Shown piece after piece: positions 13,854 to 16,727 of a stretch of DNA of 52,244 nucleotides (positions within the stretch are counted from its first letter, which is position 1; each line of letters opens with the position of its first letter). The position numbers and the translations under genes are program-made. The notes below the pieces were generated by a model, which saw nothing but the letters and a program-made list of their open reading frames with translations, searched no databases and was not told the origin of the DNA. Location: IMG/VR virus record IMGVR_UViG_3300044210_000063. One strand, 5' to 3'. Source of the stretch: a virus.

Positions 13854-16727
13854 TTGGAACGCCTACTTCGTAGTGTTATCCAGATTGGTGGTAATCCTGA
13901 TGCAGACGATGCCTATCAAAATTGGCTTCGTTTTCGGGAACATAATTTGGAGTATGCCGTCGAGGAAGATCGACGCATCGTGGATTATCTGTCTGATTTT
14001 TACTCGCAAATGAACGCACCGCCTGATGTGGCGATCATACGCGAGTTTTTTGAAAAGCGTGACGATGTAGAAGCGGTTTCTAGACTTGGTGAAATTGCTA
14101 AGGCCCAGTGGTATGCACGACAGAATTATCTGGCTATCGTTCGCAGCGAACAGGAAAGCCAATTAACACGTAATTTTGTGTTATTATGTAGAGACGTAAC
14201 CGGGATTGCTGAGCATGGGCGGAACTTGGATAAACCAGTTGATGGTAAGCGAATTATTCGTGGTGTGCACGATGCAGTGAATTACCTGTACAGCAAACTC
14301 TCGGATTATACTCGAGTAGAGACTGGTGAGAAGCTTGAAGGTGTTGTAAGTGACGATGCTGAGGAGGTGCTTGACGAATATGAGTCAGCATGCAAAGCTG
14401 ATTCATATGCAGATCGCAATCTGTTTGGATTGGAACCAGTGGATGTTGTGTGTCAAGGCCATCGTTCGGGAGAACTATGGGTGCACTGTGCTTTTTCAGC
14501 CGAGCTCAAAACCACGCTTGCGTTGAATTATGCCTACAATAATGCATTTGTATATGGTCGGAATATTTTTTATGGTATTCTCGAAATGCCATACCGGCAG
14601 CTACGACGACAAATTTATGTTTTGCATTCCTCGAATGGTAAATTTGTTACAGAATGGATGAATGCAGATGTAAAAGCTGGTCGTCCGCCATATACAGGCC
14701 TAGACTATCGGAAAGTACGTGATGGAAAGCTTGATGAGCTTGGTAGGAAGCGTCTAAAGATTGTAGCTCAAGATTTCCAGGCTACGTGTCGTGGTAGGTT
14801 GTATGTATGGCGACCAGAAGCCGCAGGCGTGACTATCAATGACATTCAGCGTCGTGCTGAGATGTTTGACAATAAATATGGATGCCAGGGAGTGATTGTG
14901 GACTATCTCGGACCACTCATTACTCCAAAGCGTCGAAGTTCTGACACAGTAACCAATCTTAATAATATTGTGACTGAATGCCGGTGGATGGCACTGAGTT
15001 TTGCCCGAGGTAGAAACGTGCCCGTGCTTGCATTGTTTCAAATGAATCGGCAGGGTAAAGCACGTGCAGACAAAAATGATGGACGATATGACTTCGCGGC
15101 AATAAGCTATGCCAACCAGTGCCTTGCCGAGGGTACTTTAGTCAAGACTAACCGGGGCTTGGTCCCAGTAGAATGTGTGTGTCCCGGTCGTGATCAGGTG
15201 TGGAGCACCTCTGGTTGGAAGCAGGTAATAGATAAGTTTGATAATGGATTACGGGCTACCGTGAGGGTGACGACTAGCTTTGGTGACGTGAACGAGGTTA
15301 CCCCCGATCATCGGTTCAGGACCGTCGACGGATACGGTCACAAGGTATGGGTATCTGCTGCAGATCTGCAGCCGGGTGATTCGTTACTCACCGACGTCGG
15401 TAAGCCTCTCTTGCCTCGCCCTCCGCCTGTCATGCCGGAGCTGGTGTTCGGCAGGGGCGAAAAGCCTAAGGATCTGGTTGGGCGGCTGCTGAAGGTGCCC
15501 AGGACAATGACCGATGAGCTAGCGTATCTGATGGGGGCTTGGGTTGGGGATGGTTCGTTCAAGCCCCAAATCAACACAATTGGCTACTCAGGTAATGCGG
15601 CCGAGGTGGTGCTGAGGGATCGATTGGTTCGGACATTTCGAGCTGTGTTCGGGCAACCGTGTACTCTCTTTACTAGCATGCCGTCACATCTCAGCACTTT
15701 CGAAATCCGAAAGTGCTCCAAAGCCTTGACTAGGTGGTTTATCGCGGTTGGAATGAATCGCCGACCTGGCGTGCCTCCCAGTATTTTAGTTTCGCCTCGC
15801 AGCGCAGTTGTGGCTTTCCTCCAGGGCCTCTTCGACACGGACGGCAGTGTTAACACTCAGGGAGTGATCGCCGTGGGCTTGAAGGAGGCTCATGAGGAGA
15901 CCCTTCGTCAGGTGAAGTTACTCCTAGCCGAGCTTGGTATTCAATCTACCTTGCGGTTCGGGCGACAAAGGTTGAACGGGAAACAGTTTGGCAGGTGGAC
16001 CCTGGTCATCCAGACCCGACGATCCCGAAGGCTCTTCGCATCCGACATAGGATTCACTGAACCTGCCAAGCAGGCCAAACTGGACGACTGTATGCTAAGG
16101 CTTAGCACTAGTCGGAAGTCCGGAGATAATACAAAATGGCCAATTGGGGGCCTTATATCCGTCCTCTACTCCAGGTATTGGGCCGCTCGGCGGATCAGGA
16201 AGGTTGCTCATGCTGTTAGGAGATGGACCGCTTGCGCTGCCTCAGTGAGTGCTGGGAGCATTGAAGCGCTATTGAGTGCTCTCAGGGACGTAGTTGGAGA
16301 TCCTGAGCTGGATCGACTCAGATCACTATTCGCGAGCTCAGCCCCCGTGCTAGTCGAGTCTGTAGTGGCGGGCACTACTCAACGTGTGTGGGATCTGGAG
16401 GTGGATGGGGATCACGAGTATGCTACTGCTGGTCTGCTTTCACATAACTGCGAAAAAGATGCAGACGTGATCACGTACACATATCTCAATGATCAGTTGC
16501 GTAAGGACGGAAAGTTTTACATGGGCAATATTAAGAACCGGGACAATCCGATCTTTGATCGCATGACTGGCAAGATCTTATGGCATTCCAAAAGGATGCG
16601 ACACATATATGATGGTCTTCTTGATATGTCCACGGATGGTATACTAGCAAATACCAACAATCCGCGATACACTATGCCGGGAGAAAATCATCCCCGTAAT
16701 CTGAATGCTCTTGACATGCTTCCGTGA
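13854..16727 (+). CDS. DnaB-like replicative helicase (RecA-fold, H4-motif region) interrupted by an intein
   Basis: TTG start with TAGGAGTGA SD 8 nt upstream. Extein region FQMNRQGKARAD...DFAAISYANQ|intein|CEKDADVITY resembles the DnaB SQLSR...SGAIEQDAD region. Walker A looks atypical (SAELKTT). Confidence 0.75.
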   Translation: MERLLRSVIQIGGNPDADDAYQNWLRFREHNLEYAVEEDRRIVDYLSDFYSQMNAPPDVAIIREFFEKRDDVEAVSRLGEIAKAQWYARQNYLAIVRSEQESQLTRNFVLLCRDVTGIAEHGRNLDKPVDGKRIIRGVHDAVNYLYSKLSDYTRVETGEKLEGVVSDDAEEVLDEYESACKADSYADRNLFGLEPVDVVCQGHRSGELWVHCAFSAELKTTLALNYAYNNAFVYGRNIFYGILEMPYRQLRRQIYVLHSSNGKFVTEWMNADVKAGRPPYTGLDYRKVRDGKLDELGRKRLKIVAQDFQATCRGRLYVWRPEAAGVTINDIQRRAEMFDNKYGCQGVIVDYLGPLITPKRRSSDTVTNLNNIVTECRWMALSFARGRNVPVLALFQMNRQGKARADKNDGRYDFAAISYANQCLAEGTLVKTNRGLVPVECVCPGRDQVWSTSGWKQVIDKFDNGLRATVRVTTSFGDVNEVTPDHRFRTVDGYGHKVWVSAADLQPGDSLLTDVGKPLLPRPPPVMPELVFGRGEKPKDLVGRLLKVPRTMTDELAYLMGAWVGDGSFKPQINTIGYSGNAAEVVLRDRLVRTFRAVFGQPCTLFTSMPSHLSTFEIRKCSKALTRWFIAVGMNRRPGVPPSILVSPRSAVVAFLQGLFDTDGSVNTQGVIAVGLKEAHEETLRQVKLLLAELGIQSTLRFGRQRLNGKQFGRWTLVIQTRRSRRLFASDIGFTEPAKQAKLDDCMLRLSTSRKSGDNTKWPIGGLISVLYSRYWAARRIRKVAHAVRRWTACAASVSAGSIEALLSALRDVVGDPELDRLRSLFASSAPVLVESVVAGTTQRVWDLEVDGDHEYATAGLLSHNCEKDADVITYTYLNDQLRKDGKFYMGNIKNRDNPIFDRMTGKILWHSKRMRHIYDGLLDMSTDGILANTNNPRYTMPGENHPRNLNALDMLP
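15120..16448 (+). mobile_element. intein (443 aa) with LAGLIDADG homing endonuclease
   Basis: Block A CLAEGTLVKT; block B TPDHRF; LAGLIDADG motifs LAYLMGAWVGDGS and VAFLQGLFDTDGS; C-terminal ...LLSHN followed by +1 Cys. In-frame (1329 nt). GC-richer than the flanking extein. Confidence 0.8.

Follow-up and report, generated by a model that had tools for sequence, protein, structure and literature searches.

Inteins in replicative helicases, phage helicases included, are among the commonest and best-described inteins according to PMC4760082, which assigns DnaB intein sites a and c, at a distance of two residues, to motif H4 and site b to the P-loop. The DnaB-a site has Gly at position -1 and Ser at +1 (G|SIEQDAD; PMC6195587), and the title of PDB entry 6frg, 'G-1F mutant of Ssp DnaB', is consistent with this Gly. 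Here, we analysed a stretch of 52,244 nucleotides (nt) of viral DNA, IMG/VR record IMGVR_UViG_3300044210_000063, hereafter called the window. We put at about 0.9 the probability that positions 15120-16448 of the window encode a canonical class-1 intein with a LAGLIDADG endonuclease, inserted in motif H4 of a DnaB-like helicase of an uncultivated huge phage; its identification as an intein with an embedded homing endonuclease, taken for itself, is at least as firm. This assignment is carried by the anatomy of the element, by its homology and fold and by a host motif that is restored exactly; in addition, its base composition is foreign and its occurrence among relatives is patchy.

With regard to the host, the nearest described systems are the bacterial DnaB-a inteins (Ssp DnaB, Mtu DnaB and Msm DnaBi2), with which the window intein shares the DnaB host family, the location in motif H4 (the DNA-binding loop) and a class-1 chemistry based on Cys1 and a terminal His-Asn. 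As in the window intein, a homing endonuclease is also present in Msm DnaBi2 and in the Mtu intein (PMC6195587; PMC4760082). The junctions differ: DnaB-a inteins sit at G|S, whereas the window intein sits at Q|C, one residue downstream, where its +1 Cys takes the place of the Ile, Val or Leu that is native to the intein-free homologues. The components of the gene and of the intein are located as follows (aa, amino acids; GC, guanine plus cytosine).

13842..13846, plus strand: Shine-Dalgarno-like AGGAG, 7 nt upstream of the helicase TTG, read from the sequence
13854..16727, plus strand: helicase precursor gene with TTG start, 957 aa plus stop, consisting of N-extein, intein and C-extein
13854..15119, plus strand: N-extein, aa 1-422, with Walker A, Walker B and H3, ending ...DFAAISYANQ
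15120..16448, plus strand: class-1 intein with embedded LAGLIDADG homing endonuclease, 443 aa, 55.1% GC
15120..15158, plus strand: block A (CLAEGTLVKTNRG); its nucleophile Cys1 (15120-15122) is invariant in 19 family members
15300..15311, plus strand: block B TxxH (TPDH, intein aa 61-64), T61 and H64 invariant
15519..15557, plus strand: LAGLIDADG motif 1 LAYLMGAWVGDGS, intein aa 134-146, putative catalytic Asp144
15807..15848, plus strand: LAGLIDADG motif 2 VVAFLQGLFDTDGS, intein aa 230-243, putative catalytic Asp241
16050..16070, plus strand: conserved GFTEPAK stretch within the endonuclease domain; an 8-sequence alignment shows G311, F312 and K317 to be invariant
16386..16448, plus strand: blocks F and G VWDLEVDGDHEYATAGLLSHN with D425, H432, penultimate H442 and terminal N443, all invariant
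16449..16727, plus strand: C-extein of 92 aa and a stop codon; it opens with the +1 Cys (TGC, 16449-16451), after which EKDADVITYTYLND completes motif H4

The open reading frame (ORF) 13854-16727 runs through all 957 aa without interruption. The intein 'CLAEGTLVKT...ATAGLLSHN' occupies precursor aa 423-865 in frame and is directly followed by Cys. In an alignment of the intein with 18 relatives (19 members), C1, T61, H64, D425, H432, H442 and N443 are invariant, as are G236 and D239 of the second LAGLIDADG motif. Both motifs end in acidic residues (...WVGD144GS and ...FDTD241GS), and both of these aspartates are kept in at least 80% of the members; in the alignment with the VMA intein (7qsu/7qss), motif 1 also falls on the first motif there. 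The initial annotation had described, at 15120-16448, a complete intein with canonical splicing blocks and a two-motif LAGLIDADG endonuclease in the C-terminal ATPase domain of a DnaB-like helicase. This description holds in all parts: the coordinates are exact to the base, the N-terminal Cys, TPDH, His-Asn and +1 Cys are found at checkable positions together with the Asp and His of block F, both LAGLIDADG motifs were located with their acidic residues, and no catalytic residue was lost on alignment. The annotated excess in GC over the exteins, treated below, was confirmed as well.

The precursor begins with MERLLRSVIQ, in agreement with MERILRSVIQ at the start of its homologues. With the intein taken out, the helicase has 514 aa. 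Pfam DnaB_C matched the helicase with 52.8-64.4 bits against a cutoff of 27, the highest value being that of the spliced form, which also matched bacterial DnaB structures in the PDB with E about 1e-11; in addition, the helicase was assigned to PHROG 19, DnaB-like replicative helicase, with E 1.5e-26. Judged by its sequence, the host protein is a DnaB-family (superfamily 4, SF4) replicative helicase with a C-terminal RecA-like domain above the curated threshold. Its N-extein contains Walker B (VIVDYLG), motif H3 (LFQMNRQG) and a non-canonical Walker A, AFSAELKTT, at 14490-14516 (helicase aa 213-221). The latter does not conform to GxxxxGK[S/T] and aligns with ARPSMGKTT, with Leu instead of the Gly preceding the P-loop Lys (ELKTT vs bacterial MGKTT). 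Nine aligned homologues have a P-loop of the type [G/S]ELK[T/S], or GELK followed by a P-loop intein. More distant helicase subfamilies have GGLKS, GGFKS or the canonical GHGKSS at this position.

In order to define the insertion site, the helicase was compared with homologues from a search of 5.8 billion proteins, which returned 271 homologues, the best 120 of which (58-71% identical) were considered. All but four of these 120 (116) are about 500 aa long and free of an insert, among them the closest ones (66-71% identical). Five aligned intein-free helicases read ...AISYAN[Q/E/R]-[I/V]-E[K/Q][D/S]ADVITYTYLN, and the helicase of the window reads ...AISYANQ-[intein]-CEKDADVITYTYLN. Excision, which gives the joined junction GCAATAAGCTATGCCAACCAG|TGCGAAAAAGATGCAGACGTG, thus restores motif H4 exactly, in the form found in more than 100 intein-free homologues (ISYANQ-[I/V/L]-EKDADV; bacterial SGS-IEQDAD), except that Cys replaces their Ile, Val or Leu. 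HMMER alignment with four bacterial DnaB structures placed CEKDAD on the IEQDAD of '...ESGSIEQDADL', which is motif H4, with the -1 Gln on Ser and the +1 Cys on Ile. Because the Gln aligns on the Ser that forms +1 of DnaB-a and the Cys on the following Ile, the site lies one residue downstream of DnaB-a. An allele of DnaB-a would lie between Gly and Ser of ESG|SIEQDAD and have Ser or Thr at +1; the intein of the window is offset from this position by +1 residue. Thus, with regard to the 'classic DnaB intein site' of the initial annotation, the motif (H4) was right and the codon was off by one residue, and its expectation that the joined exteins restore a helicase motif proved correct.

The fold of the intein was assessed by profile, sequence and structure comparison. 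Pfam LAGLIDADG_3 matched intein aa 230-311 with E 1.2e-16 and 61.1 bits against a cutoff of 22.5, and a sequence search of solved structures returned the VMA inteins 7qsu/7qss (E about 1e-7) and also PI-PfuI. The fold of a LAGLIDADG monomer consists of two pseudo-symmetric alpha-beta-beta-alpha-beta-beta-alpha halves that form a DNA-binding saddle. An AlphaFold2 model built on an 8-sequence alignment had a mean predicted local distance difference test score (pLDDT) of 79 and a predicted template modelling score of 0.81, with a pLDDT of about 85-94 for the parts of the splicing domain; the second half of the endonuclease domain was also well modelled. In Foldseek searches, the best matches of this model were the TliVMA and PhoVMA inteins (7qss, 7qsu, 7qst), PI-PfuI (1dq3), PI-PkoII (2cw7) and PI-SceI, with template modelling (TM) scores of 0.62-0.69 and E 1e-16 to 7e-17; the TliVMA intein came first (TM 0.67-0.69, E 7e-17), followed by PI-PfuI, PI-PkoII and PI-SceI. 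Mini-inteins and the hedgehog Hint domain matched the splicing part. According to the model, the intein has the Hint fold. The archaeal inteins and PI-SceI share with it a Hint domain split by a two-motif LAGLIDADG domain as well as additional helical segments, but they are only 10-18% identical to it and their hosts are V-ATPase, ribonucleotide reductase and DNA polymerase of archaea or yeast. The DnaB mini-intein structures resemble the window intein in the splicing domain only, over about 100 aligned columns with 16-25% identity.

Much closer relatives were found in metagenomes. A phmmer search of 1.84 billion representatives with the intein yielded 4,386 matches at E<=1e-3, of which 51 reached E<=1e-30; the top match had E 1.8e-110 and 44% identity. 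At least 17 clusters carry an intein at the identical codon, 16 among these relatives plus P0122, with the shared junction SY[A/S]N[E/Q]|C...HN|CE[K/R][S/D][A/S]D. These inteins (P0059/P0132, P0121, P0122, P0134, P0136, P0137, P0138, P0140 and others) have the same blocks, with [S/T/V] in front of the terminal HN, are 411-447 aa long apart from deleted forms and are 32-46% identical to the window intein. They reside in helicases of the same family, 64% down to 30% identical to that of the window, on contigs of up to 362 kb, and appear to be unstudied, their source labels being only 'intein/homing endonuclease' or 'replicative DNA helicase'. In P0139 and P0146, 38%-identical inteins are found three residues further downstream (SYANEAER|C...SHN|S[S/A]DIV) with the native Ser as +1; judging from the sequences, one intein family seems to have shifted its site here.

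In many relatives (P0024, P0099, P0106, P0134, P0137-P0140, P0151 and P0154), a second intein, unrelated to the first, occupies the P-loop (G[E/G]LK|C...HN|[S/T]), a site of the published DnaB-b type; several hosts of a same-site intein have this extra intein too. In the helicase of the window the P-loop site is empty; the equivalent position follows K219 (nt 14508-14510). The helicase precursor as such is absent from a collection of 15 billion proteins, and a nucleotide search of 50,697 deposited phage records with the whole helicase gene gave no match. At the protein level, these phage records contained only remote matches, for the helicase with at most 29.6% identity (the best being the 485-kb uncultured phage LR745208) and for the intein with at most 25% over most of the query. 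In LR745208, the tblastn match begins at query residue 220, an indication that this phage, too, has an intein in the P-loop. The best tblastn match of the intein among the phage records was the 'intein containing DNA helicase' of Bacillus phage BSP10. BSP10 and related phages resemble the window in having a LAGLIDADG-containing intein in a phage helicase. The BSP10 intein is 23-25% identical and occupies the P-loop (NGGK|C...HN|T) of a different helicase type, whereas the window intein is in H4, and we therefore rejected it as an allele.

With regard to its origin, the intein has a GC content of 55.1%, compared to 45.2% for the N-extein, 43.4% for the C-extein and 47.8% for the whole window, and lies 2.5 standard deviations above the mean of equal-sized sliding windows. 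The GC content at third codon positions (GC3) is 57.6%, vs 37.2% for the N-extein. Since GC and GC3 exceed those of the exteins, the intein is probably of foreign origin. The identities of inteins and exteins to those of the window are decoupled: in distant hosts, the inteins (36-41%) are more similar than the exteins (30-34%), and in close hosts the inteins are 44-46% and the exteins 58-64% identical. Only roughly 1% of the closest helicase homologues have the insertion site occupied. Taken together, the decoupled identities, the foreign GC3 and the low site occupancy point to horizontal acquisition by homing rather than to long vertical descent.

From the invariant residues and the established class-1 pathway, we infer the following course of splicing. 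Cys1 of the 957-aa precursor would make an N-S acyl shift, the resulting thioester would be attacked by the +1 Cys in a trans-thioesterification, Asn443 would cyclise with the assistance of His442 and release the intein, and an S-N shift would finally join ...ISYANQ to CEKDADV..., giving the 514-aa helicase with H4 restored. As the insert lies in the DNA-binding loop H4, the unspliced precursor should be inactive, and since the phage should be unable to do without its replicative helicase, efficient splicing is very probable. Once freed, the 443-aa intein would act as a monomeric, two-motif LAGLIDADG enzyme that cuts intein-free helicase alleles across the junction during co-infection, whereupon the intein coding sequence would be copied in by double-strand-break repair. 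The putative target junction is ...GCCAACCAG|TGCGAAAAAGATGC..., where relatives have ATA or ATT for TGC.

Several points weigh against the assignment of 15120-16448 as a canonical intein with a homing endonuclease. Pfam Intein_splicing (E 4.9e-6, 26.9 bits) stayed under its curated cutoff of 35.8 and NCBIfam intein_Cterm (13.8 bits) under that of 15.6; these matches, significant by E-value but under the cutoffs, indicate that the intein family diverges from the curated models. In the first half of the endonuclease domain, the segments aa 145-158 and 184-198, which are expected to form beta-strands, have a pLDDT below 50, which makes the fold of this half, and with it an intact DNA-binding saddle, tentative. 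The nearest known intein is only 46% identical, and no recent donor was identified. Furthermore, decay of the endonuclease does happen in this intein family, since the P0059/P0132/P0133 relatives have lost the whole first half of the endonuclease including LAGLIDADG motif 1, and P0188 has degenerate motifs in which motif residues are lost. Finally, function is read from the sequence, by which splicing competence appears highly probable and endonuclease activity plausible at somewhat better than even chances.

One alternative is that the intein is competent for splicing but has a dead endonuclease, in which case it would be stranded, vertically inherited and kept since imprecise loss destroys an essential helicase. 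The decayed relatives, the low model confidence in the first half of the domain and the distance to the closest relative intein agree with this explanation, which is the serious alternative, albeit less likely than not. The window intein, unlike the decayed relatives, is of full length and has both acidic residues; its GC3, 20 points over that of the N-extein, shows no drift to the host composition, which suggests a fairly recent arrival, and the closest helicase homologues lack the intein. A more far-reaching form of the homing scenario, namely an active endonuclease with a recognition sequence unlike those of characterised enzymes in a family that hops between H4 codons (+1 and, in P0139 and P0146, +4 relative to DnaB-a) and moves between helicase subfamilies sharing only 30% identity, is likewise tentative. 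It is unlikely that the intein is a redox-sensitive switch on helicase maturation, in which a disulfide between Cys1 and the +1 Cys would delay splicing under oxidation, as in mycobacterial DnaBi1. Both nucleophiles are Cys, the precursor should be inactive with its insert in a functional loop, and stress-responsive DnaB inteins have precedent (PMC6195587), but no feature of the sequence speaks for regulation in particular, conservation in the relatives does not extend to the additional cysteines C19 and C21, the H4-site intein DnaBi2 was the stress-unresponsive one (PMC6195587), and the patchy distribution fits a selfish element. That the segment is no splicing element at all, but a Hint-like insertion that arose by chance or has decayed, or else unrelated sequence joined in by the assembly, could appeal to the low scores of the curated models and the absence of the exact protein from the 15-billion-protein collection, yet it was rejected as highly improbable in view of the uninterrupted frame, the exact junctions, the invariant catalytic residues, the fold matches to solved inteins at E 7e-17 and the homologous inteins at the same codon in independent metagenomes.

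The genes around the helicase follow the order two giant ORFs, SNF2 helicase, a 304-aa ORF, helicase, vault-protein-like ORF, primase zinc-ribbon ORF, DnaJ, family-A DNA polymerase, dCTP deaminase and sigma-like factor. The ORFs referred to in the following are located at these positions.

708-5363, plus strand: giant ORF, 1551 aa, no Pfam match
5585-9145, plus strand: giant ORF, 1186 aa, no Pfam match
10827-12962: SNF2 helicase, 711 aa, an intein-free length
16879-19476, plus strand: vault-protein-like ORF, 865 aa, immediately after the helicase; matches to the shoulder domain of the major vault protein (E 6.9e-28) and to a vault repeat (E 4.7e-9)
20262-20891, plus strand: DnaG-type zinc-ribbon ORF
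21618-22658, minus strand: full-length DnaJ with J, zinc-finger-like and C-terminal domains
22696-24150, plus strand: MTES_1575/DUF559 (Vsr-like) endonuclease ORF on one side of the family-A DNA polymerase gene
26950-28767, plus strand: MTES_1575/DUF559 (Vsr-like) endonuclease ORF with a GNAT domain on the other side of the polymerase gene; GC 55.8%, GC3 65%, compositionally foreign
28783-29763, plus strand: dCTP deaminase-like protein
32031-32708, plus strand: sigma-70 region-2-like protein

Together with the helicase and the polymerase, the DnaJ, dCTP deaminase-like, sigma-like and zinc-ribbon ORFs form a replication module. Much of this gene order (SNF2, helicase, primase zinc-ribbon ORF, DnaJ and PolA) recurs on metagenomic contigs of 45-362 kb, and the clusters of helicase homologues include contigs of up to 445 kb; most likely, the window is part of the genome of an uncultivated huge phage. 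The relative locus L004 has ORFs of similar size to the giant ones (1557 and 1511 aa) ahead of its SNF2 gene, and its SNF2 helicase (6113-9127, 1004 aa) has a LAGLIDADG_3 match and probably contains an intein. The vault shoulder domain matched by the 865-aa ORF is eukaryotic, and the relative locus L001 has two ORFs (431 and 436 aa) in this place.

The initial annotation had regarded the intein as another mobile element in the same region. A tblastn search with 29 queries (family inteins and intein-containing proteins) detected no second intein in the window outside 13854-16727; the nearby candidates for mobile elements are the two free-standing endonuclease ORFs of the MTES_1575/DUF559 type. 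In the relative locus L006, ORFs of this type lie right after the helicase and, on the other strand, before PolA, and their different placement in relatives suggests that they are free-standing mobile endonuclease genes. The only other GC-rich island of the window, 25399-29430, spans the 3' part of the polymerase gene and the MTES_1575/GNAT ORF and peaks at 59% in a 1.3-kb sliding window starting at 26235.

The window intein is a real, complete and divergent, yet ordinary example of a well-known selfish element, and it leaves the current understanding unchanged. What is of interest is its codon, one off DnaB-a, the occurrence of the same family three residues further on, and the non-native +1 Cys. 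Being of full length and apparently intact, with no more than 46% identity to the nearest relative from metagenomes and no more than 18% to solved inteins, it is a candidate for a rare-cutting endonuclease or for a Cys/Cys splicing tool with Gln at -1. It is one more instance of inteins moving among uncultivated huge phages, and the insertions at several neighbouring codons of helicase motif H4 lend support to the idea that inteins accumulate in the functional loops of ATPases involved in replication. If the endonuclease is active and the family does hop between codons and transfer between helicase subfamilies, these inteins would lend themselves, as a natural series, to studies on the retargeting of inteins and their endonucleases to new sites.

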